Shown here: positions 5,445 through 62,455 of the stretch, piece after piece | Layout of the letters: every line of letters begins with the position of its first letter | Position numbering within the stretch: the first letter of the stretch is position 1 | From: Thermoanaerobaculia bacterium | GTDB taxonomy: Bacteria > Acidobacteriota > Thermoanaerobaculia > Gp7-AA8 | NCBI GenBank assembly: GCA_035629395.1 | Contig: DASPHZ010000079.1 | Span: forward strand, 693 to 64,692 | Reading direction: 5' to 3' | Length of the DNA: 64,000 nt | Program-made: the position numbers and the translations under genes | The notes under the pieces: model-generated | Database searches by the model: none | What the model was told of the DNA's origin: nothing | Seen by the model: only the letters and a program-made list of their open reading frames with translations

Positions 5445-5512
5445 GGGAAGTCGCCCGGGTCGCGCTCCGCCTCGGCATCACCGCATTCGGCGGACCCGCC
5501 GCGCACATCGCC

Positions 5513-7703: not shown

Positions 7704-7830
7704 CTCCTCGAGATCTTCTCGACCTGCGGGCGCGTAGTGTAATCGAGAGGTGTGCGCTATCATGCCTCGACGTCACGGCGGATTCGTCCCCACCGCGGCG
7801 CCAATCCAAATCGAGTCCCAGGGTTCCTGA

Positions 7831-33400: not shown

Positions 33401-34086
33401 GCGAGCTCGTACGTGAGGCGATAGGTGAGGAGCGTGCCGAGGGGACCGTTCATCGGGAGGAACTTCAGCTTCGGTTCCTGGAGAACGTCGATCGCGGACT
33501 GCGTCACGCCGGCATGCACGAGCGTGGCGGTGAGCGCCTGCGATGCGGAGAGCAGCGGCGTCGTGATCGCGGGCACGTTGGCGATGTTCGCGGAGTGCCA
33601 GTAAATGAGGTTGCCGTTGTTGACGGCGAACACGAGCCGCGCGTGCTCGACCGGGATGCCGGCGATCTTGTAGTCGAACGCGGCGTACATCACGCGTCCG
33701 CTGCGCACGGCGGTGGCGCCGGTCGGGTCATAGGTGAGGCCCGTGTTCGTCGCGCCGAAGAGAGAAGGGTTGGCGTCGATGAACGCGCGCGCCACGCTTT
33801 CGAGCTGCGCGGGATTCTTCGTCCACGGGATCGCTCCGCCGAAGACGCGGCGCGGACGGTTCGTCAGCGTGTCGAACTGCGCGGTCCAGTTGCCCCCGTG
33901 GGCGAGGTTCCACGCCGACCACGTCGGGCTGGCGAGATAGAGGTTGATCTTCGCGTTGTCGAGGAGCGGTTTGAGGGGAGGAAGGGCGACGGCTTTCGCG
34001 TCGAGGGATGCTTCCCGGATGCGAGGCTCGATGGCGAACAGCGAGCTGCAGACCAGGAGCAGGGCGATGACGAACCACTTACGCAT
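30403..34086 (-). CDS. secreted multidomain zinc metalloprotease (HExxH) with FN3, two CARDB-like domains and a C-terminal jelly-roll/MAM-like domain
   Basis: Signal peptide, propeptide-like N-terminus, VMQHEWGHGLDD, FN3 (SWTSVPGATSYSVLR...YYYRV), DLDPGEQATL and VPDPGETLRV segments. Confidence 0.8.
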   Translation of the reverse strand: MRKWFVIALLLVCSSLFAIEPRIREASLDAKAVALPPLKPLLDNAKINLYLASPTWSAWNLAHGGNWTAQFDTLTNRPRRVFGGAIPWTKNPAQLESVARAFIDANPSLFGATNTGLTYDPTGATAVRSGRVMYAAFDYKIAGIPVEHARLVFAVNNGNLIYWHSANIANVPAITTPLLSASQALTATLVHAGVTQSAIDVLQEPKLKFLPMNGPLGTLLTYRLTYELAFRLDGGRSTWVAHVDALTGAVIAFGDSNRYAACTAGTGGKVVGGVKPAQATDTEIVRSFPFAEVNGGESANANGSFVWGGGKASTGLNGTFFDTSCEDCVKSEADPQAGFQPYAESTNGLINLGTGGRDVVLGPDQPTTSYGNGTSTPADRTAFFHTNVARMIALKWMNLPWLDTKVPVKVNINDVCNAFWDGSSLNFFKAGELASGSSIIKCRNTGEIRDVMQHEWGHGLDDNDGEDPGYAAGLGDMATGEAVADHVALFVDHDACVGQSFYNSSSGPYVTDPVTGAIADCDGVRNLDEHRTTTGRLTTTNVTTTCAAVTTSPYYIGPLLGEGHCEGELWGQVSWHLAYNLETGRKYGTVTLDANKQHRTFDGDTLPAGNPGFGRDVAWTILEQLYFESRPVVASYAPSRFQVQGVSAYDGFMIADDEGDGLANGTPHAAYINDAYVHHGNEEWAPGTTSPSVAVDAKNCTAPGTPAVTLAQATHSPTGTPSITISWTSVPGATSYSVLRTERRDDVFLEVARVTTGNSVTDIGIDNGVTYYYRVQANRGGGCFAVSSGGVQSITVSQPAPAINNIVITDLVGGNSDGDLDPGEQATLFIALRNHGLGALTNVSATLRSVTTGVVVISSTPSTYGSIAAGAVGGPDQSFGITIDTDGSLCGSALQLVLDVTSDQGCFAVPVTLPLDDSLCSVFADTYVRPESIVIDNDSLTTCGDGDGVPDPGETLRVTVTVKNRGDRAATNARVGLAADHPALMVLTDTVNVGSLAVGASSTASFTVSVGSAPHATDATFTATSWSTERLEPAARALDVVVNRDLVTTTHLATFDGSNDGWMPEGLWARGLAPTTGNLTTVFHSGYTADQCDTLTSGEMEFSANSAMSFDLAYVTEGTPVEGFLDGLDIQITLDGGQSWHTLPLTQGYAGVSASTSCVGAGSPMFAGVSPLMTRFDADLSAYAGRKGQIRFRFGSDPLVEAGPAGAWVDNVTTSNIIVSVPDTSCQ

Positions 34087-34474: not shown

Positions 34475-36748
34475 ATGGCATACTGTCGCCGCTACTTATT
34501 CGGTGTCACCCTCTTGAAAACGATCCGGCTGCTTTCTGCTCTGCTCGTCTGCCTCGTCACCGCGGGTCACGCGGCGGCGCAGCTCTATGCCCTGCCGGGA
34601 CGCAAGTCGACTTCGCCGACCCAGTGCTTCACCTGTCTCGGATCGAACGTGAACCTCCCCACCTGGCAGTACGACCGGCCGCTCTTCGCGCACGCCGGGC
34701 GGTACGTCGACTCGACGACGACCGGCAACATCCAGAACGTGGGGATGCGCACGGTGCGCGCGCGGCAGATCCGCGTATCCGAGGATCACAACCGCATCTT
34801 CATTGCCCTCGGTGAGGCGATCGGCTCCTACAGGCTCGACACCTTCTTCACCACCCACCTGCGCAAGCCGCTCGGCACGATGAGCCAGCTCCAGGTCACC
34901 GGCGCGGCCATCGGCGGACGCAGTCCGCTCGAGAAAGTCTCCGTCCCGCACCAGTTCTTCTACGCCGAGATGTCGAGCTCCTCGGGCTGGACCACCGGCT
35001 TTCAGGACGCGCAGGAAGTGCTCACCGATTTCGACGTCGACGACCGCGGCTACGTCTACATCGGCAACCATTACTGGGGTTGGGGCATCTCGCACGACAA
35101 CGGCGCCGAGAACGGCAGCCACATGGCGTACATGTTCCAGCAGCGGGAGCTGTCGATCCGCCCCGTGACCGTCTTCGCGTTCAAGCGCGGTGCGACCTAT
35201 TACGCCGTCGTCTCGGAGACTGTCCGCAGCGCGGGCGCGTATGTGCTCTACAACGTCACGAACCCGCAGGTGCCGATCGAGATCGCCCTGCGCAACAAGA
35301 CCAACAAGCTGCACGACGACAAGTACGGCATCATCGCCGTCGCGAAATACGGCGCTGGCGAGCGCCTCGGCCTCATCAACACCGACGGCCACGTGCGCAT
35401 CTACAGCTACGAAGGCTTCGTCAATGACGAGGCACCGCTCGCCGATTACACGCCGTCGGCCGGGAAGCGTTTTTCCAGCGTCGCCTTCGACGGCACGGGA
35501 CGCCTGTGGATCACCGAGACGTCGGATCAGATCGTGACGAACGTTCTGCATCGCGCGACGCCGTCCGGCAGTCTCTACACGAAAGAAACGCTCGACGTGT
35601 ACGGCACCGCGTTCTCGCCGGAGCATCTCGACGTCTCCACTGATTACGTGGCGGTCGGCGGACGCAGTCTGCTCGACGGCGTCAACGGCGGCGACATGCG
35701 CCTCTATCGCATCGTGAACGGCTCGCTCGAGCTGATGGACGACGGCGGCTTTTTCCGCCGCTACTACCACGTCGCGCCCGCGGGGTACGCGGATCCCGGC
35801 ATCTACACCGCGATGCATTCGTTCAAGCTCGTCGAGCAGGGCGGGAAAACGTACCTCGTGTACAGCGCGCGCGGTCTCGGCGACGTCTACGAGCTCGGCA
35901 CGAACGAAGAGCGCATCCCGACCACGATCTCGCTGCGCACCGAGGGGCCGGGGACGAACGTGCATCTCATCGCGACGGTCACCGCTTCTTCGATGGGCGC
36001 GGCACCGCTCGGCGGCGTCGTCACGTTGACGAAGAACGGACAGCCGCTCACGAATGCGACCGTGTCCGGTACGAACGATCCGCGCACGTTCATCGTGAAC
36101 ATCACGCGCGCGGACCTCACGTCGAACGCGGTGCTCGCGGCCTCGTACGAAGGCGATGCGCTGTACGCGCCGAGCGGCCCCGTGTCCCTGCAGTACTCGC
36201 CCGCCACTCTCGCCGCACCGACCGGGTTCACCGCTTCGGCGACGAGTCCGAATTCAGTGCAACTGACGTGGGACCCGCTTCCGGGCGTCGCGTATTACGA
36301 GGTGCTGCGCAAGGACGCGGGCACGAACTGGGTGCGCGTGACGAACGTCTCCACTCCGTCGTATCTCGACATTTTCGTGATCGCGAATCAGGCGTATCTC
36401 TATCGCGTGCGCGGCTACGACTCGCGCGCGGGCGCGGACAGCGTGACGGAGATCGCGACGACGTTTTCGTGGACCGACCATCCTCTCGGTGCGGGCTCGC
36501 CCGTCAAGGCCGTGCACGTCACCGAACTGCGCACCATTACGAACGCCGTGCGTCGCGCCGCGGGATTCGAAGAAGTCGCATTCGCCGATCCCCATCTCGC
36601 CCGCGGCGACAGCATCCGCCTTTTGCACGCCACGCAACTCCGTACCGCGATCGGGGAGATGCGGGCGGCTCTCGGACTCGCTCCGCTCGCGGCGGCGACG
36701 CCGTTTTCGCGCGACGACGTTTCCATCCTGCGCAACGGTCTGCAGTAA
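34475..36748 (+). CDS. secreted beta-propeller / Ig-like / FN3 protein with triple AVHxxELR C-terminal module (paralogue 1)
   Basis: Signal peptide ...LLVCLVTAGHAAAQ. About 45% identical to the next gene over the propeller part and about 80% over the Ig-like part. TTG at 34514 is an alternative start that aligns better with paralogue 2. Confidence 0.8.
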   Translation: MAYCRRYLFGVTLLKTIRLLSALLVCLVTAGHAAAQLYALPGRKSTSPTQCFTCLGSNVNLPTWQYDRPLFAHAGRYVDSTTTGNIQNVGMRTVRARQIRVSEDHNRIFIALGEAIGSYRLDTFFTTHLRKPLGTMSQLQVTGAAIGGRSPLEKVSVPHQFFYAEMSSSSGWTTGFQDAQEVLTDFDVDDRGYVYIGNHYWGWGISHDNGAENGSHMAYMFQQRELSIRPVTVFAFKRGATYYAVVSETVRSAGAYVLYNVTNPQVPIEIALRNKTNKLHDDKYGIIAVAKYGAGERLGLINTDGHVRIYSYEGFVNDEAPLADYTPSAGKRFSSVAFDGTGRLWITETSDQIVTNVLHRATPSGSLYTKETLDVYGTAFSPEHLDVSTDYVAVGGRSLLDGVNGGDMRLYRIVNGSLELMDDGGFFRRYYHVAPAGYADPGIYTAMHSFKLVEQGGKTYLVYSARGLGDVYELGTNEERIPTTISLRTEGPGTNVHLIATVTASSMGAAPLGGVVTLTKNGQPLTNATVSGTNDPRTFIVNITRADLTSNAVLAASYEGDALYAPSGPVSLQYSPATLAAPTGFTASATSPNSVQLTWDPLPGVAYYEVLRKDAGTNWVRVTNVSTPSYLDIFVIANQAYLYRVRGYDSRAGADSVTEIATTFSWTDHPLGAGSPVKAVHVTELRTITNAVRRAAGFEEVAFADPHLARGDSIRLLHATQLRTAIGEMRAALGLAPLAAATPFSRDDVSILRNGLQ

Positions 36749-36793: not shown

Positions 36794-39037
36794 ATGCGTT
36801 TCATCGTCTTCGCAGTCGTGTGCCTGCTTGCAGCGCTTCCGGCGCCCGCGCAGTTCTGGACGTTCCCCGGCGCCAAGTCGGAGACGCCGACATGTTGCAC
36901 CGGCTGCCGCGATGCGGCGGAAGGCCTGTTGACGTGGCAGTACGAGTGGCCGATCGTGGCGCACACCGGTCGTTACGTCGACTCCACGAGGATCGGCATC
37001 TACCAGAATCCGTTCCGCACCGCCCGCGCGCGGCGCATCCGCGTCAACCGCGACTGGAACCGCGTCTACATCGCCCTCGGCGAAGCGATCGCCGCGTATC
37101 CGCTCGACACGTTTTTCACGACCGAGCTCCGCAAACCGATGGAGACGCCGAACTCGCTGGCGCTGAGCCAGCATCCGACCCGCAACCCGATCGAGAGCAT
37201 CGCCGTCCCGGAGCGGTACTTTTACGCCGAGTCGCCTCTGTCCGGGTGGATCTGCGGATCGCCGGACGCGGGTGACGTGCTGACCGACTTCGACAGCGAC
37301 GATCGCGGCAACCTCTACGTCGGCACGATCCAGTTCGGCTGGGGCTTTGCGCACGACGGGCACGTGATCCCCGGCCATCCCTCGTATCGCGGGATGATGG
37401 ATTACCGCGTGCAGGTGGCGTCGTCGATCGAGCCGACGAGCGTCATCTCGCTGAAGATCGGGAGGATGTACTACGCCGTGATCTCGCAGCACGTGGCCAG
37501 CGCCGGCGCGACCATGCTCTACGACGTAACGAATGACAAGACGACGCCGCGCGAGATCGCGTCGCGGCCGGGGGCGGACGACGAACGCAACGACAAATAC
37601 GGCATCGCGGCGTGGGCAAAGTACGAGGAAGGTCAGCGGCTGGCCCTGCTCAACACCGACGGGCACGTGCGCATTTACGACTACGCCGAGTTCATTGCGG
37701 ACGCCGAGCCGCTCGCGGATTTCACACCCGCGAGCGGGAAAAAGTTCGTGAGCCTCGCCTTCGACGACGAGGGAAAGCTCTGGTTGGCCGAGACAAGCCA
37801 GGACGTCGACAGAAACCACCTCTATCGCGTCACAGCGATCGACGGCGGCTACACGAAAGAGGCCTTCGACGTCTACGGCGGCCCTTTCTCACCGACCGTG
37901 CTGCACGTCGGCGGCGGCTATGTGGCGGTGGCCGGCAGGAGCCCTGCCGATCCGCTGGAGCGAAGCGGCGACATGCGCCTGCTGCGCATCACGAACGGCG
38001 AGCCCGTTCCCGTGTCCGACCGCGGTTTTTTTCGCAACTACTACGACATCGCGCCTTCCGGATACGCGACGCCGAGGATCTACACCAATCCGTACATCGG
38101 CCTGCGCTCGCTGCAGCTCGTCGACCAGGGCTCGAAGACCTACCTCATGTACAGCACCCTCGGCCTCGGCGACGTGTACGAGCTCAGTCGCGGCGAGAAC
38201 CGCATTCCCACCACCATCGCGCTGCGCACGGAGAGCAACGGCCCGAACGTGCAGCTCATCGCGACCGTCACCGCTTCCTCGATGGGCGCGGCACCGCTCA
38301 GCGGCGTGGTGACGATCACGAAGAACGGGCAGCCGCTGACGAACGCGAACGTCTCCGGCACGAACGACCCGCTGACGTTCATCGTCAATCTGCCGCGCAC
38401 CGATCTCACCGTCGCGGCCACGCTCGGCGCCGCGTACGAAGGCGACGATCTCTACGCGCCGAGCGGTCCGGTGTCGATCCAGTTCTCCCCCGCGGCACTG
38501 GCCGCGCCGACCGGCTTCCACGCAATCGCCACGACGGCCGCCTCCGTGCAGCTCACGTGGGACGCCGTCCCCGGCGTCGTTCTGTACGAAGTGCAGCGCC
38601 GCGGCAGCGGCGGTCCGTGGAGCGTGCTCGCCACGACCATCGCGCCGCTGTACCTCGACCTCACCGTGGCGGCAAACCAGGTCTACCTCTATCGCGTGCA
38701 CGCCGTCGGTACGACGGCCGGCCCCGATAGCGTCACCGAGCTCGCGAGCACCTATGCCCTCACCGACGACCCGCTGCACGAGGGCGCGGTCGTGCAGGCG
38801 GCGCACGTCACCGAGCTGCGCACGATCGTGAATGCCGCACGCGCCGTGGCGGGCATGGCTCCGTTCGCGTTCACCGATGCCGGGCTCGCACCGGGTGCGG
38901 TGATCCGCGCGGTGCACGCGAGCGAGCTGCGCACCGCGTGCGAGCAGTTGCGCGCCGAGCTGGGGCTCGCTCCGCTCGCCCCAGCCGCCGCCTTCTCGCG
39001 CGCCGACCTCCTCACCCTCCGCGCCGGCCTGCGGTAA
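36794..39037 (+). CDS. secreted beta-propeller / Ig-like / FN3 protein with triple AVHxxELR C-terminal module (paralogue 2)
   Basis: Signal peptide MRFIVFAVVCLLAALPAPAQ. Collinear with 34475..36748. Confidence 0.85.
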   Translation: MRFIVFAVVCLLAALPAPAQFWTFPGAKSETPTCCTGCRDAAEGLLTWQYEWPIVAHTGRYVDSTRIGIYQNPFRTARARRIRVNRDWNRVYIALGEAIAAYPLDTFFTTELRKPMETPNSLALSQHPTRNPIESIAVPERYFYAESPLSGWICGSPDAGDVLTDFDSDDRGNLYVGTIQFGWGFAHDGHVIPGHPSYRGMMDYRVQVASSIEPTSVISLKIGRMYYAVISQHVASAGATMLYDVTNDKTTPREIASRPGADDERNDKYGIAAWAKYEEGQRLALLNTDGHVRIYDYAEFIADAEPLADFTPASGKKFVSLAFDDEGKLWLAETSQDVDRNHLYRVTAIDGGYTKEAFDVYGGPFSPTVLHVGGGYVAVAGRSPADPLERSGDMRLLRITNGEPVPVSDRGFFRNYYDIAPSGYATPRIYTNPYIGLRSLQLVDQGSKTYLMYSTLGLGDVYELSRGENRIPTTIALRTESNGPNVQLIATVTASSMGAAPLSGVVTITKNGQPLTNANVSGTNDPLTFIVNLPRTDLTVAATLGAAYEGDDLYAPSGPVSIQFSPAALAAPTGFHAIATTAASVQLTWDAVPGVVLYEVQRRGSGGPWSVLATTIAPLYLDLTVAANQVYLYRVHAVGTTAGPDSVTELASTYALTDDPLHEGAVVQAAHVTELRTIVNAARAVAGMAPFAFTDAGLAPGAVIRAVHASELRTACEQLRAELGLAPLAPAAAFSRADLLTLRAGLR

Positions 39038-39144: not shown

Positions 39145-39783
39145 ATGCCTCCACGCAAAACCATCCACGATTCCGACGCCCGCGCCCGCATTCTCGCCGC
39201 GGCCACCGAGGTCTTCGCCACCATCGGCTTCGCCGCGGCGCGCGTCGACGACATCGCCGAGCGCGCCGGCGTCAACAAGGCCATGCTCTACTACCACGTC
39301 GGCGACAAGGAACGGCTCTACGCCACCGTCCTCACCGACACCGTCGACCGCGGTTTCGCCGAGCTCCGCGCCGCGACGGAAAAAGCGGGGACGCCCGCGA
39401 GGAAGCTCGCCTGCGTCCTCGACGCTTTCGCCGAATTCGGCACCTCCAACCCCTACTTCGTTCCCATCATGTTCCGCGAGGTCGCCTCGGGTGGCGCCAC
39501 GCTTCCCGACGAGATGCTCGTGCGCATGGCCGGCGTCTTCCGCGTCGTCGGGGACGTGATCGCCGAGGGGATGAAGAAGGGCGCTTTTCGCAAGGTCGAT
39601 CCACTCCTCACGCACGTCTCCCTCGTCGGCACGATGATGTTCCTCGTCGCCTCGCAGCCCATTCGCCTGCGCCTCGCCAAAGTAGCGGGCGTCGAGCACC
39701 AACCCTCGCTGCAGGACCTCGCCGATCACACACTCAACCTCGTGCTGCACGGCATCGAGAAACCGCAAAAAGGAAAAAAATGA
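39145..39783 (+). CDS. TetR/AcrR-family transcriptional regulator
   Basis: RILAAATEVFATIGFAAARVDDIAERAGVNKAMLYYHV. The stop overlaps the start of the TolC-like gene (ATGA). Confidence 0.9.
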   Translation: MPPRKTIHDSDARARILAAATEVFATIGFAAARVDDIAERAGVNKAMLYYHVGDKERLYATVLTDTVDRGFAELRAATEKAGTPARKLACVLDAFAEFGTSNPYFVPIMFREVASGGATLPDEMLVRMAGVFRVVGDVIAEGMKKGAFRKVDPLLTHVSLVGTMMFLVASQPIRLRLAKVAGVEHQPSLQDLADHTLNLVLHGIEKPQKGKK

Positions 39784-41294
39784 AGTACCTGCCGTTCGTT
39801 CTCCTGTTCGCGCTGACCGCGCGCTCGCAGGAGCTGTCGCTCGCCGATGCGATCGCGATGGCTCTCGCGAAAAACGGCGACGTCGTCGTCGAGCGCGAAT
39901 CGCTCCACATCGCCGAGGCGACCGTGCTCCGGGCCGAAGCCGCGTACGAGCCCACATTGCGCGGCGAATTGCGTCTGCGCGAGCGCACCGATCCGGTGAA
40001 CTCGATCCTCTCGGGCGCACCGCGCGGCGAGCTCGCGCCGACCCAGCGTTCGTTCGTGACCTCCGCCTCCGTCGTGCAACTGCTGCCGACCGGCGGCACC
40101 GTGTCCGTGTTCTCCGGCATCACGCGTGACGACACGAACAGCATCCTCGCGCTGCTCACGCCGTCGTGGACCACGCTCCTCGGCGCCGAGGTCCGCCAGC
40201 CGCTCCTGCAGAACCGCCGCATCGATCCCGCGCGCCGCGCCATCCGCATCGCCCACGTCGATCGCACGCGCGCCATCTCCTCGCTGCGCCGGGTGGCCAC
40301 GGAAACGACGGCCGCCGTCGAGCGCGCGTACTGGACCGCGGTCGCCGCGCAACGCGACGTCGAGACGCGCCAGTCCGCGCTCGAAGTCGCGGAGAAACAA
40401 CGCGAAGACACGCGCACGCGCATCGAGGCCGGCACGCAATCCGAGGCCGACCTCGCGCAGACGACAGCGGAAGTGGAGCGGAGGAGGGGAGAGCTCGTGG
40501 TGGCCCGCGAGAACGCGGAGCGCGCGGGCAACGCGCTCGCGTTTCTGACCGGAGCGTCGGGCTTCAGGCTTCCGGGACTGGTCGCTGCGACAGAAACTCC
40601 GCGCCGCCCGCCGCCCGACGCCGCGATCGCCACAGCGATCGCCCATCGCGCCGACCTCGACGAGCTCACCACCCGCCTCGAACGCGCCGACATCGACATC
40701 GAAGCGGCCGCCGACCGCGTGCGCCCGCAGATCGACCTCGTCGCCCACTACTCCGGCCGCGGACTCGCCGGCACGCGCAACGAAGACGCCATCGAGCCAT
40801 TCGGCCCCGTCGTCGTCGCGAACGAAATCAACGGAGGACTCGGCCGCTCGTTCCGTTCGCTCGACGAGTTTCCGGACGCCTCCCTCGGCGTGGCGATCTC
40901 GATCCCGATCGGCAACACCGCCGCGAAGCAGGACGTCGCCATCGCACGTGCGCTGCGCCGCCAGTCCGAGGCGACGCTCGAGCACGCACGCCAGCGCATC
41001 GCCATGGAAGTCCGCAACGCCATCGCGTCACTCGCGAGCGCGGAACAGCGCATCACCGCGGCGCGGGCGGCACGCGAGGCGGCCGAGGTGCAGTTGCAGG
41101 CGGAGCGGGACCGCTTCGAAGCCGGCATCTCCAACACGTTTTTCATCCTCACGCGCCAGAACGATCTCACCGCCGCGCGCGTCGCCGAGACCGTCGCACT
41201 CGCCGACTACCGCAAGGCCGAAACCGAATTCGCCCGCGCCACCGGAACACTGCTCGAGGCGCGCGGCATCAGCATCGAGGGAGGTACTCAGTGA
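39780..41294 (+). CDS. TolC-family outer-membrane efflux protein
   Basis: Signal peptide and two OEP repeats: LSLADAIAMALAKN..., and the second half with the same heptad pattern. Confidence 0.85.
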   Translation: MKYLPFVLLFALTARSQELSLADAIAMALAKNGDVVVERESLHIAEATVLRAEAAYEPTLRGELRLRERTDPVNSILSGAPRGELAPTQRSFVTSASVVQLLPTGGTVSVFSGITRDDTNSILALLTPSWTTLLGAEVRQPLLQNRRIDPARRAIRIAHVDRTRAISSLRRVATETTAAVERAYWTAVAAQRDVETRQSALEVAEKQREDTRTRIEAGTQSEADLAQTTAEVERRRGELVVARENAERAGNALAFLTGASGFRLPGLVAATETPRRPPPDAAIATAIAHRADLDELTTRLERADIDIEAAADRVRPQIDLVAHYSGRGLAGTRNEDAIEPFGPVVVANEINGGLGRSFRSLDEFPDASLGVAISIPIGNTAAKQDVAIARALRRQSEATLEHARQRIAMEVRNAIASLASAEQRITAARAAREAAEVQLQAERDRFEAGISNTFFILTRQNDLTAARVAETVALADYRKAETEFARATGTLLEARGISIEGGTQ

Positions 41295-42247
41295 AACGAT
41301 TACTCATCATCGCGGCGCTCGCGCTCGTCGCCTGCGGCGACCGCAAGGACGACGGCACGATCCATCTCAACGGCCGCATCGAAGCCCCCAGCGTCGACCT
41401 AGGGCCGAAAGTCTCCGGACGCGTGACGGAGGTGCTCGTGCGCGAAGGCGACCGCGTCAAAGCCGGCACGCTCCTCGTGCGTCTCGACCTCGGCGAATCC
41501 GCCATCGCCGTCGAACGCGAACAGGCCGGCGTGCGCTCGGCGCAGGCACGCGCGCAGGATCTCGAATCGGGCTCGCGCGAATCGGAGATCGGCGCCGCGG
41601 ACGCGGAAGTGAGCGATCGTCGCGCGGCCGTGTCGCTCGCCGAGAAAGAGCTCGAGCGCCAGCGGTTCCTGCTCGACCGCAAAGTCGGCACGCAGCGCGA
41701 CTACGACCGCGCGCGCACCGATCTCGATCGCGCACGCGCTGCACTGCGCGCTTCCACCGAGCGCGCGGAGCTCGCGCGTGAAGGCGCACGCCGCAAGCAG
41801 ACCGAGGCCGCGGAAGCGGAAGCGGAGCGCGCGCAGGCGGTGCTCAAGCAGAGCGTGAGCGTCGCGCGGGAAGGGGAGATCCGCGCGCCCGCGGACGGCG
41901 TGATCGTGCATCGCCTCGCCGAGCCGGGCCAGCTCGTCGGACCGGGCCAGGCCGCGGTGACGATGGCCTTCGCCAATCGCCTCTTCGTGCGCACGTTCAT
42001 CCCGGAGACGAAGCTCGGCCGGGTGCGCATGGGCACGCCCGTGCGCGTCACGGTCGATGCGCATCCGGGCAAAGAGTTCCCCGCGCGCATCACCGAGATC
42101 GCGCCCGAGGCGGAGTTCACGCCGAAGGCGGTGGAGACGAAGAGCGAGCGTGTGAATCTCGTCTACGCGGCGAAAGCCGATCTCGATCGCGGCTGGAGCG
42201 AGCCGCTCGTGCCGGGACAGCCGGCGGAAGTCGTCGTGAAGCCATGA
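41291..42247 (+). CDS. HlyD-family periplasmic adaptor
   Basis: The GTG overlaps the TolC stop. Lipoyl-like hairpin GRVTEVLVREGDRVKAGTLLVRLD, coiled coil, and beta-barrel PGQPAEVVV. Confidence 0.85.
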   Translation: MKRLLIIAALALVACGDRKDDGTIHLNGRIEAPSVDLGPKVSGRVTEVLVREGDRVKAGTLLVRLDLGESAIAVEREQAGVRSAQARAQDLESGSRESEIGAADAEVSDRRAAVSLAEKELERQRFLLDRKVGTQRDYDRARTDLDRARAALRASTERAELAREGARRKQTEAAEAEAERAQAVLKQSVSVAREGEIRAPADGVIVHRLAEPGQLVGPGQAAVTMAFANRLFVRTFIPETKLGRVRMGTPVRVTVDAHPGKEFPARITEIAPEAEFTPKAVETKSERVNLVYAAKADLDRGWSEPLVPGQPAEVVVKP

Positions 42248-42362
42248 TCGCCGCCGCCGTCGTATCGAGCCGCGCAGACGGCGAAACCTCTCGAAATGCG
42301 CACGATTCGCGTCGTGCGAGGCCCTGCGCCGTCTGCGCGGCTCAGGGTGACGGGGAGCTCGC

Positions 42363-43256
42363 ATGATCGCCGCACGCAATCTCACGCGCCGCTTCGCGGC
42401 GAAGACCGCGCTGGATGACGTCTCGCTCAGCATCGAGCCGGGCGAGCTGTTCGGCCTCATCGGCCCGGACGGCGCCGGGAAGACCACGTTCTTCCGCATC
42501 GTCGCGGGCGTGCTGAAGCCGACGTCCGGCAGCGTCACCGTGAAGCCGGACGTCACGTTCGGCTTCGTCCCGCAGCGCTTCGCGATGTACGAAGACCTCT
42601 CGGTCGACGAGAACCTCCGCCTGCGCGCGAAGCTCTACGACGTCCCGAACGACGTCGCGCGTGCACGCGCCGCCGATCTCCTCGGACGCGTGGGGATGGA
42701 TCGCTTCCGCAACCGTCTCGCGGGCGCGCTCTCCGGTGGCATGAAGCAAAAGCTCGCGCTCGTCGCGGCGCTGCTGACGAAGCCCGGGCTGCTCCTGCTC
42801 GACGAGCCGACGACCGGCGTCGATCCCGTGTCGCGTCGCGAATTCTGGGCGCTCCTCAACCAACTGCATCACGAGGGGCTGACGATCGTCGTCTCGACGC
42901 CGTACATGGACGAAGCCGAGTACGCGACGCGCATCGCGTTCCTCGATCACGGCCGCATCTCGTCCATCGGCACACGTCCGGAAATCCTCGGCACGTACGA
43001 CCGTCCGCTGCTCGAGATCCGTACCTCGAACCGCCTGCGCGTGCGCGAGCTTCTCGAGCCGATGTCCGAGATCGACGACCTTTCCCTCTTCGGCACCGTG
43101 CTGCATGCACGCGGCGCGGAGGGCACCGGTCCCGAGTTGCTCCCGCGCGTGCGCGCCGCGCTGCGCGACGTCGTGGCCGAAGAGGAGATCCAGCCGCTCG
43201 CGCCATCGCTCGAAGACGTGTTCGTCCTGGCCGGCGGCGAAGGAGAGGAAGAATGA
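42363..43256 (+). CDS. ABC transporter ATP-binding protein
   Basis: Walker A GPDGAGKTT, signature LSGGMKQK, Walker B LLLLDEP. Confidence 0.9.
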   Translation: MIAARNLTRRFAAKTALDDVSLSIEPGELFGLIGPDGAGKTTFFRIVAGVLKPTSGSVTVKPDVTFGFVPQRFAMYEDLSVDENLRLRAKLYDVPNDVARARAADLLGRVGMDRFRNRLAGALSGGMKQKLALVAALLTKPGLLLLDEPTTGVDPVSRREFWALLNQLHHEGLTIVVSTPYMDEAEYATRIAFLDHGRISSIGTRPEILGTYDRPLLEIRTSNRLRVRELLEPMSEIDDLSLFGTVLHARGAEGTGPELLPRVRAALRDVVAEEEIQPLAPSLEDVFVLAGGEGEEE

Positions 43257-44191
43257 GCGCGCTGATTCACGTCGAGCACGTGACGCGCCGCTTCGGCACG
43301 TTCACCGCCGTCGACGACGTTTCCTTCGATCTCCCGCGCGGCAAAGTCTTCGGCTTCCTCGGACCGAACGGCTCCGGCAAGTCGACGACGATCCGCATGC
43401 TCGCGGGCCTGCTCGCGCCGACCGCGGGCCGCATCACCGGTTTCGGCAATCTCGACGTGACGAAAGACACGGAGGCGTGGAAGTCGCGGCTCGGCTACAT
43501 GAGCCAGAAGTTCTCGCTCTATCTCGATCTCACCGTCGAAGAGAACCTGCGCTTCTACGGGACGATCTACGGTCTCGAGCGCGAGCGCCTGGCCGCGCGC
43601 ATCGATGCGCTCGCGAAGCGTTTGCGCTTCGAGAAGATCCGCAACCAGCTCACCGAAGGGTTGTCGACCGGACTGCGCCAGCGCGTGGCACTCGCCGCGG
43701 CGCTGCTGCACGAGCCCGAACTGCTGTTCCTCGACGAGCCGACGGGCGGTGTCGACCCGCGCGGCCGCCGTCTGTTCTGGGATCTCATCTACGAGCTGGC
43801 CGCCGACCGCGACATGACCGTGCTCGTGACCACGCACTACATGGACGAGGCCGAGCAGTGCGATCGGCTGGCGTTCATCCTCGACGGCGTCCTGATCGCC
43901 GACGGCGCGCCGCACGAACTGAAGAAAGACTTGCGCGGGCGGATTCTCGAAGTACGCACCGAGCTCGATCCGTTCGCCATCGTGAAATCGATCCAATCCG
44001 ACCCCTCCCTCGAAGACGTGTACCTCTTCGGCCTCACCGTGCGCGCCGTCGCCGGCGAGGGTGCGGCCGCGCGCGTGCGCGAGCTGCTGGCGCGCTGGGG
44101 CACACCGGAACAGGCCGAGCCTTCGCTCGAAGACGTGTTCGTCTCGCTCGCGCGCCAGCGGGTGCGGACGAAAGAGGCGGTGACCGCATGA
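43253..44191 (+). CDS. ABC transporter ATP-binding protein
   Basis: GPNGSGKST, LSTGLRQR, LLFLDEP. Overlaps its neighbours by 4 nt. Confidence 0.9.
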   Translation: MSALIHVEHVTRRFGTFTAVDDVSFDLPRGKVFGFLGPNGSGKSTTIRMLAGLLAPTAGRITGFGNLDVTKDTEAWKSRLGYMSQKFSLYLDLTVEENLRFYGTIYGLERERLAARIDALAKRLRFEKIRNQLTEGLSTGLRQRVALAAALLHEPELLFLDEPTGGVDPRGRRLFWDLIYELAADRDMTVLVTTHYMDEAEQCDRLAFILDGVLIADGAPHELKKDLRGRILEVRTELDPFAIVKSIQSDPSLEDVYLFGLTVRAVAGEGAAARVRELLARWGTPEQAEPSLEDVFVSLARQRVRTKEAVTA

Positions 44192-45303
44192 AACGACTGC
44201 TCGCATTGACCTGGAAAGAGTTCCTGCAACTGCGCCGCGACAAGATGACGCTGCGCATGATCGTGATGGTGCCGGTGATGCAGACCATGATCTTCGGCTA
44301 CGCCATCAACTACGACGTCAAACATCTCAAGACCATCGTCTTCGACGAAAGCCGCACCTACGAGAGCCGCGAGCTCGTGGCGAAGATGACGAGCACGGGC
44401 TACTTCGACGTGCTGCAGTACGTCGACTCGTTCGACGAATTGCAGCGCGAGATCGACGCGGGGCGGGCCGCCGTCGGACTCGTGTTCGACCGCGACTTCG
44501 GCAAGAACCGGCATCGCGGACGTCCCGCGGAAGCGTTCCTCATCGTGAACGCGAGCGACACGACGACGTCCTCACAGGCCATGTCGATCATGTCCGGCAT
44601 CAGTCAGACGATGTCCATCCAGACGCTCGCGCGGCGCGGCGGCTGGACGAACAAACAACTGCCGGTCGACGTGCGCGTGCGTCCCTGGTACAACCCCGAT
44701 CTGCGCACGGCGCGCTTCATCATTCCCGGCCTCATCGCCATCATCCTCACGTTCACGCTCATCCAGTTCACCGCCATCGCCATCGTGCGCGAGCGCGAGC
44801 GCGGCACGCTCGAGCAGTTGCAGGTCACTCCGGCCACGCGCGCGGAACTGATCGTCGGCAAGATCCTGCCGTTCATCGTCATCGGCTACTTTCAGTTCAC
44901 GCTCACCATCCTGCTGATGCGGTTTCTTTTCAGGATCGAGATCGCCGGCTCGCTGCTGCAGTTGTATCTCGTCGGCTTCCTGTTCATGGCCGCGGTCCTC
45001 GGGCTGGGCATGCTGATCTCGACCATTGCGCAGACGCAGATGCAGGCCACGCAGATGTCGATGTTCTTCCTGCTGCCGTTCGTCTTCCTGTCGGGGTACG
45101 TGTTTCCCATCGAAGGCATGCCGCTCTTTTTCCGCTGGATCTCGAACGTGATTCCGGCGAAGTACTTCATCGAAGTGATCCGCGGCATCGTCCTGCGCGG
45201 CGCGTCGTTGCCGGAGCTCTGGCGGCCGACGGCGCTCCTCGCGCTCTACACGTTCCTGATCATCGGTCTCGCGGTGGCGCGGTTCAAAAAGACAACCGCG
45301 TGA
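44188..45303 (+). CDS. ABC-2 type transporter permease
   Basis: MKRLLALTWKEFLQLRRDKMTL, six TM helices, YbhS/YbhR-like. ATGA overlap with the ATPase gene. Confidence 0.85.
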   Translation: MKRLLALTWKEFLQLRRDKMTLRMIVMVPVMQTMIFGYAINYDVKHLKTIVFDESRTYESRELVAKMTSTGYFDVLQYVDSFDELQREIDAGRAAVGLVFDRDFGKNRHRGRPAEAFLIVNASDTTTSSQAMSIMSGISQTMSIQTLARRGGWTNKQLPVDVRVRPWYNPDLRTARFIIPGLIAIILTFTLIQFTAIAIVRERERGTLEQLQVTPATRAELIVGKILPFIVIGYFQFTLTILLMRFLFRIEIAGSLLQLYLVGFLFMAAVLGLGMLISTIAQTQMQATQMSMFFLLPFVFLSGYVFPIEGMPLFFRWISNVIPAKYFIEVIRGIVLRGASLPELWRPTALLALYTFLIIGLAVARFKKTTA

Positions 45304-57974: not shown

Positions 57975-60152
57975 GTGAAGATTGTCGTCCGCGCCGTAAT
58001 CAGTGTGTCCACGCTTCTCCTGATCGACTTTTCCGCCGCAGCGGCGAGCCTTCGCGCGCCGGCGGTTACTTCGATCTATCCGCCATCCGGCGCGACCGCC
58101 GGTGGCACGCTGGTCACAATTCGCGGGACGTACTTTCAGGCGGGTGCGACGGTTTCGATCGGTGGGGCGCCTCTCGTCGACCTCACCTACGAGGGCAACG
58201 GCATCATCAAGGGCACGACCACTGCGCGCATCCGCGGGACCGTGAACGTCGTGGTAACAAACCCGCCTCCGAACGGCGTGAGTGCGCGCCTGTTGAAGGC
58301 GTTCACCTATACCGACGGCACTTGCTGCGAGTATCCGCGTTTCACCACGCTGGCCCTGGCCGGGGCATCGACGCAACCGCCGCCGTCGGTCGTCGTCGGC
58401 GCATTTGCGGGAGTTCCGAACAGCATCGTCGCTCCGGCGTTCGACTTCATTTCCCTCTTCGAGGGTAACGGAACCCACGCATTCACGCCGGTGCAGAAGT
58501 TCGACAGCGACGCGAACTATTCTGCGACGGAGGTGCTGGACATCAACGGTGACAGCGTCGAGGACGTCGCGCTCGCGGCGCTCGGAGGAAACGTCGTCAC
58601 GTTCCTCGGTGACGCTGAAACGCCCCTGGCAGACTCGCGAACCGCGCCGAGCACCGCGTTCGCTTTCGCGCTCGACAGCGGTGACTTCAACGGTGACGGT
58701 GTGCCCGATCTCGTGATCCCCGACCATGCGACGGGCAATGTGAACATCTGCCTCGGAAATCTGGGTGGAGGCGGATGTGCGGCGACGAACACGTATGCCG
58801 TCTGCACGGCGCCGTCCGGTGTGACCACGGGGGACTTCAACGGCGACAAGCATGTCGATATCGCCGTCAGTGACGATTTGGAGCGTGCGGTCACGATTCT
58901 CCTCGGCAATGGAACCGGCTCGTTCGAGGTCGGGCCGCCCATTCCCGCCGGCACGCCGGCAACGAACGTAATGGGTCTTGCTGCAGGGTACCTCGACGAC
59001 AACGGCATTCTCGACCTGGCCGTCTCGACCGGTGCGATCCTGCTCGGCAACGGCGACGGCACCTTCACCGCTGGAACACCGCTTCCGCTGACCAGCGGAC
59101 GCCATGTAGCCGTCAGTGATTTCAATCGCGACGGAAAGCGCGACATCGCCATCGATACATCACGTGCCGCGGTGCACGTCCTGCTCGGCAACGGTCAAGG
59201 CGGCTTTGTGCAAGGACCGACCATTCAGGCAGTGGGTGGTTTCTACGATGCCTTCGCACCCTTCGACATCGAAGGAGACGGCATGGTCGACCTTGCGATT
59301 GGCGGCGCGCCCGTCGTCGCGAGGAACGTCATCGCGACCTGTCCCGCCATCACGGTCAATCCCTCGGCACTGCCGCTGGGCACGGTCGATCAGACGTACG
59401 ATTTCACGTTCACACAGAGCGGCGGCGAAGGCCCGATCACATTCACACTTTCGGGCGCGCTGCCGCAGGGGCTGGCGTTCGCGGGTGGAACGCTCAGCGG
59501 CACACCGGCGCAGGCGGGGTCGTATCCGATCAGCGTCACTGCGGCTGACGCGAATGGCTGCTGGTCGACCCGCGCCTACACGCTCGCAATCAACGGTGAG
59601 TGTGCGAGCAATCTAGTGGCCGTCGCCACGGCTGCGGCCTCCGTGCGCTTGTCATGGACAGGCGTGAGCGGCGCGACGTCCTATCAGGTCTGGCGCCGCT
59701 CGGCTGGCCAGATCGACGCTCATGTCGCATCTACGTCGGCGACGCAGTACGACGAGGTGGTGGAGACAGGGAAAACGTACGTTTACTACGTTCGGGCGGT
59801 AATCGGTACGCAGGTGACCTGTCCGAGCAATACCGACATTGCAACGACGGTCGTGTTCACCGATCCGCAGATCGTTCCGGGAGTGACGCCCGTGAAAGCC
59901 GTGCACATTCCGCAAATGCGCCTGGCGGTCAATGCGGTTCGCGCTGCGGCCGGACTGACCGCGGCGTCATTCTCGAGCATCGGCGTCGGGAGCACAATCA
60001 GGACGGCGCATATCCACGAGCTCCGTAGCGCATTGAGTCCGGCGCGTGCGAGCCTTGGACTCGCGGTCATCGATTTTACGGATACACCGCTGACGGCGAT
60101 GACGCCGATCCGCGCGGTGCATCTGACGGAGCTGCGAAACGGCGTGCAGTAA
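57975..60152 (+). CDS. secreted IPT/TIG, FG-GAP beta-propeller, Ig-like, FN3 protein with triple AVHxxELR C-terminal module (paralogue 3)
   Basis: GTG start after GGAGGTCCA. IPT: PAVTSIYPPSGATAGGTLVTIRGTYF. Six or more FG-GAP repeats (GDFNGDG.PD). He_PIG-like Ig. FN3 SWTGVSGATSYQVWR. Confidence 0.85.
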   Translation: MKIVVRAVISVSTLLLIDFSAAAASLRAPAVTSIYPPSGATAGGTLVTIRGTYFQAGATVSIGGAPLVDLTYEGNGIIKGTTTARIRGTVNVVVTNPPPNGVSARLLKAFTYTDGTCCEYPRFTTLALAGASTQPPPSVVVGAFAGVPNSIVAPAFDFISLFEGNGTHAFTPVQKFDSDANYSATEVLDINGDSVEDVALAALGGNVVTFLGDAETPLADSRTAPSTAFAFALDSGDFNGDGVPDLVIPDHATGNVNICLGNLGGGGCAATNTYAVCTAPSGVTTGDFNGDKHVDIAVSDDLERAVTILLGNGTGSFEVGPPIPAGTPATNVMGLAAGYLDDNGILDLAVSTGAILLGNGDGTFTAGTPLPLTSGRHVAVSDFNRDGKRDIAIDTSRAAVHVLLGNGQGGFVQGPTIQAVGGFYDAFAPFDIEGDGMVDLAIGGAPVVARNVIATCPAITVNPSALPLGTVDQTYDFTFTQSGGEGPITFTLSGALPQGLAFAGGTLSGTPAQAGSYPISVTAADANGCWSTRAYTLAINGECASNLVAVATAAASVRLSWTGVSGATSYQVWRRSAGQIDAHVASTSATQYDEVVETGKTYVYYVRAVIGTQVTCPSNTDIATTVVFTDPQIVPGVTPVKAVHIPQMRLAVNAVRAAAGLTAASFSSIGVGSTIRTAHIHELRSALSPARASLGLAVIDFTDTPLTAMTPIRAVHLTELRNGVQ

Positions 60153-60281
60153 GAGCAGCATCAGTTTGCGCATGGTGGCTAAACGTAAATCGACTGCGCG
60201 GACCGAAGAGTTCCTGATTTCTCGCCTTCCATGGGTAAGGAATCACGACCTGGCGACACTCCTTCAGTGGAGGTCCATCCC

Positions 60282-62455
60282 GTGAAGACTGTCTTCCGCT
60301 TCGGCATCGCGGTGTCCGTGCTGTTCCTGTGCGTATTTTCCGTTGCCGCTGCGAATCAGCGCGTGCCCGCGGTCACCGTCATCTATCCGCCGTATGGTTC
60401 GGTGGAGGGTGGCACGGTTGTGACGATCCATGGGACCTACTTTCAAGGTGTTCCCTCCGTGGTGATCGGCGGTGTGCCGCTCACGAACGTCGTCCGCAAG
60501 TCTGCCGGCGAAATCACGGGAACAACCGGAGCTCGGATGCGTGGGACCGTCACACTCGTCGTCACCAATCCGGATGGTGCGAACGCTCGCCTCCTCAAGG
60601 GGTTTACCTATACAGATGGTGCCTGCTGCGAATACCCGAGGTTTACCACCACGGCGCTGACCGGCGCTTCACAGCAGCCGCCGCCTTCCGTCGCCGTCGG
60701 TACATTTACCGGACTCTGGAATAGTCCGGTCTTTCCTGCCTTCGATTTCATTTCACTATTCGTCGGCGACGCCTCTCCCGACTTCACGCCCGTCCGGAAG
60801 TTCGATAGCAACGCGAACTTTTCCGCAACCGAGGTGCTGGACATGAATGGCGACAGCATCGAGGACGTAGCCATGGCGGCCCTCGGTGGCGATGTCCTTA
60901 CCCTGCTTGGCGATCGGACGGACCCGTTCTCGGACTCGCGAATCGCGCCCAGCACTGCCGTCGCTTTCGCGCTCGACAGCGGCGATTCAACGGGGATGGC
61001 GTCCCCGATCTCGTCATCCCCGACCATGAATCCGGCAACGTCAACATCTGCCTCGGCAATCTCGGCGGTGGCGGATGCGCCGCGACGATCACCTACGCCG
61101 TCTGCATGGCGCCGTCCGGCGTCACGACCGGTGACTTTGACAACGACGCGCATCTCGATATCGCCGTGAGCGACGATGAGGCAGGCGTTGTCACGATCCT
61201 TCTCGGCAGCGGAACCGGATCGTTCGAAATCGGACCGCCCATAGCCGCGGGCACGCCGGCGACCCCGGTGATGGGTCTCGCGGCTGGTTATCTCAATGCT
61301 GACGCGAGCCTCGATCTCGCCGTTTCAACGGGTGCCGTGCTGCTGGGAAACGGCGACGGCACGTTCCTCGCCGGCACACCACTCCCATTCACCAGCGGAC
61401 GTCATGTCGCCATCAGCGATTTCAATCGCGACGGCTATCGCGATATCGCCATCGACAGCCCACAGACGGCGGTGCACACGATGTTGGGCGATGGCCACGG
61501 CGGCTTCGTGCGGGGGCCGACGGTGCAGGCAGCGGGTGGTCTCTACGACGCCTTTGCCATCTTTGATATCGAAGGCGATGGGATGGTCGATCTGGCCATC
61601 GGCGGGTCTCCAGTCGTGGCGCGTAACGTCATCGCCACCTGTCCCACCATCACGATGAATCCCTCCAGTCTTCCGGCAGCGACGGTCGGTGAGACGTATC
61701 CCTCCGTCACATTCGCACAGAGCGGCGGCAGCGGTGCGATCACGTACAAACTCACGGGTACGCTGCCGAACGGGATGTCCTTCGCGGGAGGAACGCTCAG
61801 CGGCACGCCGGGGCAGGTGGGGGAGTATCCGCTCGTTGTGACTGCCGCTGATGCGAATGGCTGCTGGACACGAAAAGAATACGTGCTGACGGTCACCGGG
61901 ACCTGTCCGATGAATCTTGTGGCTGCCGCTGCAGGTGCGGGCTCAGTGCAGTTGTCGTGGACTGGCGTGAGCGGCGCGACGTCTTATCAAGTCTGGCGCA
62001 GCTCGTTGGGACAGGCGGCGACGCACATCGCCTCGCCATTGACGAACGAATATGACGATACGACAGCCGCCAACAGGACCTACGTGTACTACGTTCGCGC
62101 GGTTACGGGTGCGCAGGTCTCCTGTCCGAGCAACTTCGAGATTGCCACGACGATCGCCTTCTCAGATCCGGTCATCACCGCGGACAACACAGTGGTGAAG
62201 CTCGTGCAATTCACGCAATTGCAAAGCGCCGTGAATGCAGTACGCGCAGCGGCGGGGCTAGACCCCGCCTCTTTTTCGAGCATCACCGTCGGGAGCAGAA
62301 TCAGAACGGCGCACGTCCACGAGCTTCGCAGCGCGCTCACGCCGGCACGCGCGATCCTCGGTTTGCCCGCGATCAGCTTCACCGATCAACCGCTGACCGC
62401 TGCAACGCCCATCCGCGCAGTGCATCTCACGGAGTTGCGCAATGGGGTGAAGTGA
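60282..62455 (+). pseudogene. paralogue 4 of the IPT/FG-GAP/FN3 family, interrupted by a 1-nt deletion at about 60986
   Basis: ORFs 60231..61169 and 61106..62455 are collinear with 57975..60152. The frame changes inside GD-FNGDG (GGCGAT-TCAAC versus GGTGACTTCAAC in the paralogue). GTG start at 60282 after GGAGGTCCA. Confidence 0.8.

Follow-up and report, generated by a model that had tools for sequence, protein, structure and literature searches.

A three-repeat domain at the C-termini of secreted Acidobacteriota proteins as a putative docking or anchoring tag

Introduction

The S-layer homology (SLH) domain, the type I dockerin and the C-terminal domain (CTD) of the type IX secretion system (T9SS) are the described systems closest to the element that we report here. 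This element is the tail shared by four large secreted proteins encoded in a 64-kb stretch of a Thermoanaerobaculia contig (DASPHZ010000079.1), the whole of which we call the window. We found that the tail is an autonomous, extracytoplasmic and closed domain of ~100 residues, usually located at the C-terminus, which has no match in the libraries that were searched (Pfam-A, NCBIfam release 20, PHROGs, PDB sequences, PDB folds and BFVD, which together set the scope of "unannotated" in this study). It belongs to a very large family, all organism-named genome loci of which are found in Acidobacteriota, and we tentatively propose that it is a docking or anchoring domain.

SLH domains (PF00395) consist of ~55-aa repeats with a helix-loop-helix, and their pseudo-threefold symmetry is established, whereas that of the tail is only inferred. 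The tail is like them in having three tandem homologous repeats per chain and a helical core, in displaying a short polar motif in each repeat (TRAE in SLH, T-D...H..ELR in the tail) and in being a terminal, portable module found on varied extracellular enzymes and surface proteins within one lineage. However, its repeats are only ~35 aa long with one helix each, and its carriers are Gram-negative Acidobacteriota. SLH was matched neither in Pfam at E≤10 nor among the 51 Foldseek matches to the PDB (best E 1.0). Type I dockerins (PF00404) are also small C-terminal modules made of loop-plus-helix repeats, which are carried by varied enzymes and present in many copies per genome, but they comprise two 22-aa calcium-binding F-hand segments instead of three 35-aa repeats. 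Pfam returned no dockerin at E≤10, and the tail consensus is devoid of D/N-rich calcium loops. No cohesin was detected by Pfam either, so that the cohesin-like N-terminal domain of two loci (L004 and L005), a visual impression, was rejected.

Like the tail, the T9SS CTD (Por_Secre_tail, PF18962/TIGR04183) is a folded domain of ~80-100 aa located at the extreme C-terminus of diverse Sec-dependent passengers, and it is concentrated in certain lineages, mainly Bacteroidota, as the named loci of the tail are in Acidobacteriota. In contrast to the predicted helical tail, it is a beta-sandwich; moreover, ~10% of the tails are internal and one type sits in a membrane-anchored protein. No T9SS CTD model of Pfam or NCBIfam matched the tail. 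The same two libraries gave no match to PEP-CTERM, LPXTG, sortase or exosortase models, and none of 103 representatives had a transmembrane-like C-terminus. Finally, a subset of loci described below recalls PAAR-VgrG-Rhs systems in that a monomer of inferred pseudo-threefold shape is encoded beside a trimeric fibre-like protein and an RHS/YD-shell toxin. However, PAAR (PF05488) was absent from the Pfam matches and is a beta-structured cone rather than a helical domain, and the tail proteins are Sec-dependent, not borne by a type VI secretion system. By analogy, the logic of the tail therefore seems most like that of SLH, dockerin and the T9SS CTD, while every test for membership in these families was negative. 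We rate it as an element of a known kind, that is a portable non-catalytic tag of secreted proteins, whose sequence family and fold are unmatched in the searched libraries.

Few groups of soil bacteria are as abundant as Acidobacteriota, which have very large repertoires of secreted hydrolases, proteases and adhesins. To our knowledge, no mechanism has been described by which their secreted proteins are held or arranged on the cell surface.

Results and discussion

Four proteins of the window end with the same tail

A preliminary description of this DNA had listed four open reading frames (ORFs) ending with a common tail. By scanning the six-frame translation of the window with a hidden Markov model (HMM) of the tails and a few homologues, we found exactly these four and no other ORF, with E-values of 1.7e-44 (gene C), 5.1e-42 (D), 1.4e-34 (A) and 1.8e-32 (B). 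The ORFs have the ends that had been claimed and D is indeed frameshifted. Their features, all on the + strand, are as follows.

34475..36748, +, gene A: 757 aa; signal-like hydrophobic N-terminus, ~480-aa body, Ig-like region, fibronectin type III (FN3) domain and three-repeat tail
36203..36454, +, FN3-type beta-sandwich of A, placed by alignment to the FN3 of C and D; coordinates verified by translation
36455..36745, +, tail of A: 97 aa; VKAVHVTELR and IRLLHATQLR in its full repeats, followed by a degenerate one, FSRDDVSILRNGLQ
36794..39037, +, gene B: 747 aa; paralogue of A, in tandem with it and of identical architecture
38492..38743, +, FN3-type beta-sandwich of B, placed by alignment to the FN3 of A, C and D; coordinates verified by translation
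38744..39034, +, tail of B: 97 aa; a degenerate repeat, FSRADLLTLRAGLR, after two full ones
57975..60152, +, gene C: 725 aa, GTG start; signal-like N-terminus, IPT/TIG, FG-GAP, He_PIG Ig domain, FN3 and three-repeat tail
59598..59849, +, FN3 of C, from the AlphaFold2 (AF2) model and Foldseek
59850..60149, +, three-repeat helical domain of C: repeat 1 at 59850-59957, repeat 2 at 59967-60062, repeat 3 at 60069-60149
60231..62455, +, gene D: paralogue of C (66-73% identity), in two ORFs, 60231-61169 and 61106-62455
61901-62152 and 62153-62452, +, FN3 and three-repeat domain of D

The last ~180 residues can be aligned across the four proteins, with 56% identity between A and B over FN3 plus tail and 72% between the tails of C and D. 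All four have a signal-like hydrophobic N-terminus (the h-region of A reaches a Kyte-Doolittle value, KD, of 3.09). At the other end, no hydrophobic 18-mer was found in the last 60 residues of A-D (maximum KD 0.46-1.12), and no Pfam or NCBIfam model matched, which bears out the reported lack of a transmembrane segment, PEP-CTERM, LPXTG or T9SS-like ending. The 2.5-3 repeat copies that had been counted correspond to three in C and D, the third being truncated after ELRNGV, and to two full copies plus a degenerate third in A and B, in which the FTD arm is missing and D replaces H. The tail had been placed at 59846; it is real, but its claimed start overlaps the last FN3 strand "DIAT", and the domain proper of C starts at 59850.

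The N-terminal bodies were said to differ between the two pairs of proteins. For C and D, this could be substantiated with Pfam, which found IPT/TIG, FG-GAP and He_PIG domains (in C, TIG 6e-10, FG-GAP_3 2.4e-28 and He_PIG 5.7e-11). The propeller attributed to A and B could not be verified. Indeed, their ~480-aa bodies (34475-35900 and 36794-38250) were assigned to no Pfam family and had no PDB sequence match, and the only Pfam matches of A, Big_3_5 and fn3, were both weak.

In gene D, one base is missing near 60986, where tblastn with C shows a frame switch: the site (window 60980-60990) reads GATTCAAC instead of the expected GATTTCAAC, that is GAT-TCA-ACG and not GAT-TTC-AAC, where C has DSGDFNGDG. 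Also, its first repeat (62153-62260) is VKLVQFTQLQ and lacks the His and Arg that are nearly invariant elsewhere. These observations are consistent with D being a decaying pseudogene, a sequencing error being the alternative.

The repeat is conserved and its number is fixed

The repeat is ~35 aa long and the whole tail ~100 aa. The three repeats are mutually homologous by hhalign (probability 98.8-99.3%, E 1e-17 to 1e-21), and thus are true internal duplications. From 1,296 unique repeats, we derived the consensus [FWY]-T90-D96-x-x-[LI]-x-x-G79-x-T75-x-[VI]-[KR]-A-[VA]-H96-[LVIF]-x-E86-L93-R99-x-[AR]-[VLI]-x-A-[ALV]-[RY]-x-A-[AL]-G85-L, in which figures are percentages of conservation. In every repeat, conservation of the polar positions (T, D, H, E and R) is 86-99%. 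A single helical stripe comprises H, L, [VLI], [ALV] and A, and is flanked by E and R. Since exactly three repeats were found in 367 of 378 family members, the tail is a closed domain rather than an open-ended repeat array.

The family is very large and its named loci are all from Acidobacteriota

A profile search of 1.84 billion cluster representatives (50% identity) retrieved 7,066 proteins at E≤1e-3, of which 5,294 at E≤1e-10. Together with 64 loci found in other Acidobacteriota genomes, this shows that the motif is not limited to recent duplicates of the genome studied here. The 64 loci were retrieved by scanning GTDB at one genome per species, with patterns taken from a narrow alignment that covers only the "...TELRNGV" branch to which the window belongs. 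They are all from Acidobacteriota, mostly Thermoanaerobaculia with some Pyrinomonadaceae, and are at most 59% identical to C; Vicinamibacterales appear among the source names of other tail-bearing sequences. Another, larger branch has a GC content of ~70% and carries Big_9 or He_PIG where FN3 would stand. At one of its loci, the neighbour of the tail gene encodes an ADOP-family duplicated permease (TIGR03434, 777 bits). As the ADOP family is typical of Acidobacteria, this branch likely belongs to the same phylum.

The domain ends at most 5 residues from the C-terminus in 233 of 260 top proteins; in ~70 of 74 Acidobacteriota ORFs, it extends exactly to the stop codon. Internal copies make up ~10% of the top representatives, with CARDB (8e-13), NHL (4e-13), Big_9, PPC or PKD domains downstream. 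Short stand-alone proteins made of Big_9 and tail, which dominated the first homology searches, were rejected as an independent form: both that we examined are gene fragments. One belongs to an LRR-reprolysin...Big_9+tail gene split by an IS21-family insertion (L065:3335-8543, with IstA and IstB at 5480-7788). The other (L066) directly abuts an upstream ORF in a frameshift-like manner.

The tail is fused to many unrelated extracytoplasmic domains

Consistent with the portability ascribed to the tail in the preliminary description, we found that its fusion partners are extracytoplasmic domains of dozens of unrelated types. Among 71 top-scoring full-length representatives scanned with Pfam, we found Big_9 (49), He_PIG (33), LRR (~20), PKD (19) and reprolysin M12 (16), along with Big_2, cadherin-like, FN3, FG-GAP, subtilase S8, matrixin M10 and PPC domains. 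The 48 ORFs from Acidobacteriota genomes gave fn3 (35), GH44, M57, M12, M10, CAP, kelch/galactose-oxidase, glyoxal oxidase, sortilin/BNR, TIG and PKD. Only 5 of the 71 representatives had an fn3 match, and the alignment just upstream of their tail is Big_9-like. Since Big_9 and He_PIG matches outnumber those of fn3, the part that defines the family is the three-repeat helical domain, and FN3, judging from these matches, is an obligate upstream neighbour in the Thermoanaerobaculia/Pyrinomonadaceae-type branch only.

Several paralogues are found per genome, often in tandem: four in the window, three in a row in one locus (L017) and three in another (L036), two of which are co-oriented and one convergent. 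Even with the narrow search pattern, there were 3-4 tail loci per metagenome-assembled genome.

The tail is predicted to form a compact three-helix domain packed on a beta-sandwich

AF2 models were built with 124-126 aligned homologues. The tail of C alone was modelled with a predicted local distance difference test (pLDDT) of 86 and a predicted template modelling score (pTM) of 0.78; these values rose to 95.1 and 0.90 when FN3 was included (residues 542-725), which argues that FN3 and tail are one rigid body. Helices span residues 22-36, 55-71 and 92-102, counted from 59841, and each repeat consists of an arm (18-21 residues, ordered but with no regular secondary structure) and a single helix after it. 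Thus, the three helices are predicted to make up a compact domain in rigid contact with the beta-sandwich that precedes it. The latter has seven strands in C (E4-E83), the last of which, "DIAT", joins the first "FTD" arm with no linker. Given that the repeats are equivalent units and that the arms are long enough to return along the helix, the helices are probably parallel with pseudo-threefold symmetry, a geometry that also takes helical periodicity into account. In such an arrangement, the three near-invariant His would converge at one end of the bundle, and E and R would occupy positions resembling inter-helix salt bridges.

The upstream domain had been called FN3, and its fold supports this: Foldseek matched the seven-stranded sandwich to Tencon, a Fn3-like protein of C. 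thermocellum and human FN3-14 (E 2e-6 to 5e-6, target-normalised template modelling score, TMt, 0.73-0.78). Pfam fn3 scored only 11.8-15.6 bits in the window proteins (E 0.02-0.29), against a gathering threshold of 25 bits, but it passed (E≤0.001) in 35 of 48 homologous Acidobacteriota ORFs with the equivalent module. The "GATSYxVxR" motif attributed to all four FN3 domains holds for C and D and not for A (GVAYYEVLR) and B (GVVLYEVQR).

In BFVD, the tail model (59841-60149) came closest to viral proteins, with a Foldseek probability of ~1 but E-values of 0.1-0.4. One of these is K4NWU9, an uncharacterised protein of Sulfolobales rod-shaped viruses (rudivirus), with a query-normalised score (TMq) of 0.68. 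Another is A0A8S5VH47, an uncharacterised protein of an uncultured phage (TMq 0.69, root-mean-square deviation 2.4).

Family, structure and literature searches place the tail in no described family

The tail had been left outside named families, and our searches agree with this. Pfam-A gave a best E of 0.15 at a cut-off of E≤10. In NCBIfam, the only overlap was EncB in gene D (E 0.14, 12.4 bits for a cutoff of 210). The best PHROGs match (E 0.0025) was confined to 25 aa and not convincing, and PDB sequences searched with a single sequence and a profile reached at best E 0.28. When the FN3+tail model was compared with the PDB by Foldseek, the FN3 half was matched and the tail half was not, in line with the 51 poor matches of the tail model alone. 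Two precomputed annotations were discarded as models of the tail: PF25564 (DUF7933) maps to N-terminal residues 3-86, and PF25833 was precomputed for only 4 of 120 tail-bearing matches while a local scan gave none. In full-text literature searches aimed at the tail, the motif or domain was nowhere described.

A phage origin of the tail was also considered and rejected, as tblastn against GenBank phages was empty and PHROGs unconvincing. A single match was found among the 2.9 million contigs of IMG/VR; hence the domain appears to be essentially missing from phages. This match lies on a viral-binned contig (L071:4533-5189) and is a partial variant, with an Ig/FN3-like segment followed by two repeats only and then a coiled-coil-like stretch.

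Tail genes recur beside fibre-like and RHS toxin genes

We clustered all-against-all the genes flanking the 64 loci together with those of the window, and no family was present in more than 9 loci. A partner gene conserved beside all tail genes was thus rejected, the best flank family reaching only 9 of 64 loci. This family encodes tail-fibre-like proteins, and the fibre-like gene lies just downstream of an FN3+tail gene on the same strand.

L008, L023, L033, L043, L053, L055, L060, L061 and L063, each from ~6400 in a 12-kb locus: fibre-like gene adjacent to a tail gene

Whenever a fibre gene is found in a flank, it directly adjoins the tail gene, which carries a galactose-oxidase-like or M10-like enzyme in 5 of these 9 loci. 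The fibre-like proteins match phage tail-fibre PHROGs (E 1e-17 to 8e-36) and the beta-helix regions of Bdellovibrio MAT fibres (8OJN 5e-9, 8OML 1e-7, 8OND 5e-7), which are trimeric (PMC10769870). Their C-terminal ~180 aa, ending with ...GEILVLLSLQ, are 60-70% identical across classes.

The tail is also found in a family of small proteins of ~279 aa, which consist of a basic N-terminus, a transmembrane helix, a Pro-rich spacer, the motif SKEYIYAGGRLIATEEP, FN3 and the tail, and nothing else. In 5 of 7 contigs, the small gene sits between the gene for a tail-fibre-like protein with a Sec signal, upstream, and the gene for an RHS/YD-shell toxin of 1680-1900 aa, also with a Sec signal, downstream, which is followed by a small immunity-like ORF. 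In the other two, one flanking gene is cut by the contig end and the remainder is consistent. The cassette loci have a GC content of 50-56%, and we found no published description of the cassette in the literature searched.

L067:7325-16773: cassette, on a contig that was also recovered from another sample (L068)
L069:6812-16777: cassette of different order, with the fibre-like gene between the small gene and the RHS gene
L070:3551-15197: cassette
L072:7069-11106: cassette, downstream gene cut
L073:230-8234: cassette
L075:7674-15654: cassette
L074: contig-end fragment

The proximity of tail genes to genes for trimeric fibres suggests a candidate partner for the tail, and in the minimal ~279-aa protein no part other than FN3+tail stands out as a candidate functional end.

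A docking or anchoring role is favoured over secretion, capping or substrate binding

We propose that the tail is a putative docking or anchoring domain, with a probability that we estimate at roughly 0.45. Each ~35-residue unit would comprise an extended arm ([FWY]-T-D...G-x-T-x-[VI]-[KR]-A) and one helix (H-x-x-E-L-R...R...G-L); the three helices would form a closed core wrapped by the three arms, and this core would join without linker an FN3 or Ig-like beta-sandwich into a single rigid unit. As a non-catalytic tag, this unit would tether diverse passengers to one shared ligand at the cell envelope. This ligand may be a glycan, of the envelope or of the matrix, following the logic of SLH, or a protein, following that of dockerin and cohesin, in which case the co-encoded trimeric tail-fibre-like proteins would be the sole concrete candidate. 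Such a role is favoured by the portability of the tag, the tolerance of internal positions, the minimal membrane-anchored protein and the recurrent co-encoding with trimeric fibres, and also by the fixed repeat number, the many paralogues per genome, the extracytoplasmic setting and the strong conservation of polar residues.

Several observations weigh against this proposal. No known binding, docking or anchoring family resembles the tail in Pfam, PDB sequences or Foldseek searches of the PDB. No gene adjoins most tail genes, the best neighbour family being found in 9 of 64 loci, and the window itself lacks a fibre-like gene. The extreme C-terminal position, observed in at least 90% of the members, is equally expected of a sorting signal. 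Also, the pseudo-threefold geometry and the clustering of His are deduced and not read from coordinates. Finally, a role that is structural only, like that of a coiled coil, would fit the conserved E, L and R and the hydrophobic stripe, so that conservation by itself is no proof of a binding site.

The preliminary description had named secretion recognition among three roles, and we consider it less likely than docking or anchoring. According to this explanation, the tail would be a C-terminal sorting domain, perhaps removed, that is recognised by a hypothetical Acidobacteriota machinery for outer-membrane export or attachment, by analogy with the T9SS CTD. Its position at or near the stop codon (233 of 260 proteins, ~70 of 74 ORFs), the extracellular nature of every passenger behind a Sec signal, its ~100-aa folded size and the single phylum of all named genome loci are all as this would have it. 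It is nevertheless weakened by the ~10% of internal copies with confident domains downstream (CARDB, NHL, Big_9 and PPC) and by the small protein, for which release at the outer membrane is not expected given its N-terminal transmembrane anchor. Moreover, no machinery gene is conserved within ±6 kb of the 64 loci and no T9SS, PEP-CTERM or sortase-type model matched, and we therefore regard it as unlikely. A structural end-cap or stabiliser of Ig-like/FN3 stalks, possibly metal-stabilised or oligomerising and with no ligand of its own, seems less probable still. The tail does always directly follow a beta-sandwich with which it is predicted to be rigid (pTM 0.90), and its H, L, [VLI], [ALV], A stripe with flanking E and R looks like a packed helical core with inter-helix salt bridges. 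However, a cap would leave unexplained its presence on unrelated enzymes of one phylum with many paralogues per genome, as well as the minimal protein within fibre/RHS cassettes, and many bacterial Ig/FN3 arrays terminate without anything comparable.

The least probable explanation in our view is that the tail resembles a carbohydrate-binding module (CBM) and brings enzymes to an environmental polymer rather than to the producer cell. The tail is found on GH44 glycoside hydrolases, glyoxal/galactose-oxidase-like enzymes and proteases, at the end where non-catalytic binding modules of such enzymes commonly sit. Yet other passengers are adhesins (LRR, Ig, FG-GAP), and the substrates of the enzymes are chemically unrelated, which makes one common substrate unlikely. 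Known CBMs are almost all beta-sandwiches or beta-trefoils and not helical, no CBM family was matched in the Pfam scans, and polymer degradation does not fit with the RHS cassettes.

A narrower form of the docking proposal, which we hold to be quite improbable, is that the tail acts as a pseudo-threefold adaptor plugging monomeric cargo onto trimeric phage-tail-fibre-like surface fibres, either at the threefold axis or at their conserved C-terminal domain. If it were true, the cargo would include exo-enzymes and adhesins, and RHS toxins through the small membrane-anchored FN3+tail protein. The tail would then be the tag of an undescribed Acidobacteriota system for surface display and toxin presentation, with the logic of dockerin-cohesin and PAAR-VgrG and unrelated folds. 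Irrespective of this adaptor hypothesis, the link to fibre and RHS genes offers a partner that can be tested experimentally. A single, confidently folding tag found in more than 7,000 protein clusters may serve as a handle for finding its receptor or machinery. It is also a candidate for a new curated domain family and possibly a new fold, and would help to annotate the thousands of proteins that are now called "hypothetical" or "FN3 domain-containing".

Other genes near the tail genes of the window

Downstream of gene B (window 39145-45303) lie genes for a TetR regulator and an outer-membrane efflux protein (OEP), an HlyD-like ORF, and ORFs for two ABC ATPases and an ABC-2-type permease; Pfam confirmed TetR and OEP only, the others being read from ORF translations. 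An ABC-type ORF of this block is found beside tail genes in 4 of the 64 loci (5 sources with the window). A link of the tail to type I secretion through these TetR-OEP-HlyD-ABC genes was rejected, as the tail proteins have Sec signals and the context is not conserved; in the same way, the N-termini of all four window proteins are signal-like and none of them matched RTX. On the other side of the A-B pair, the - strand (30403-34086) encodes a secreted protein of 1227 aa that carries CARDB, an HExxH motif reading QHEWGHG and, internally, an FN3 of the same "GATSYSVLR" type. This protein has no three-repeat tail, which shows that FN3 domains of this type are not always accompanied by the tail, even close to the tail genes.

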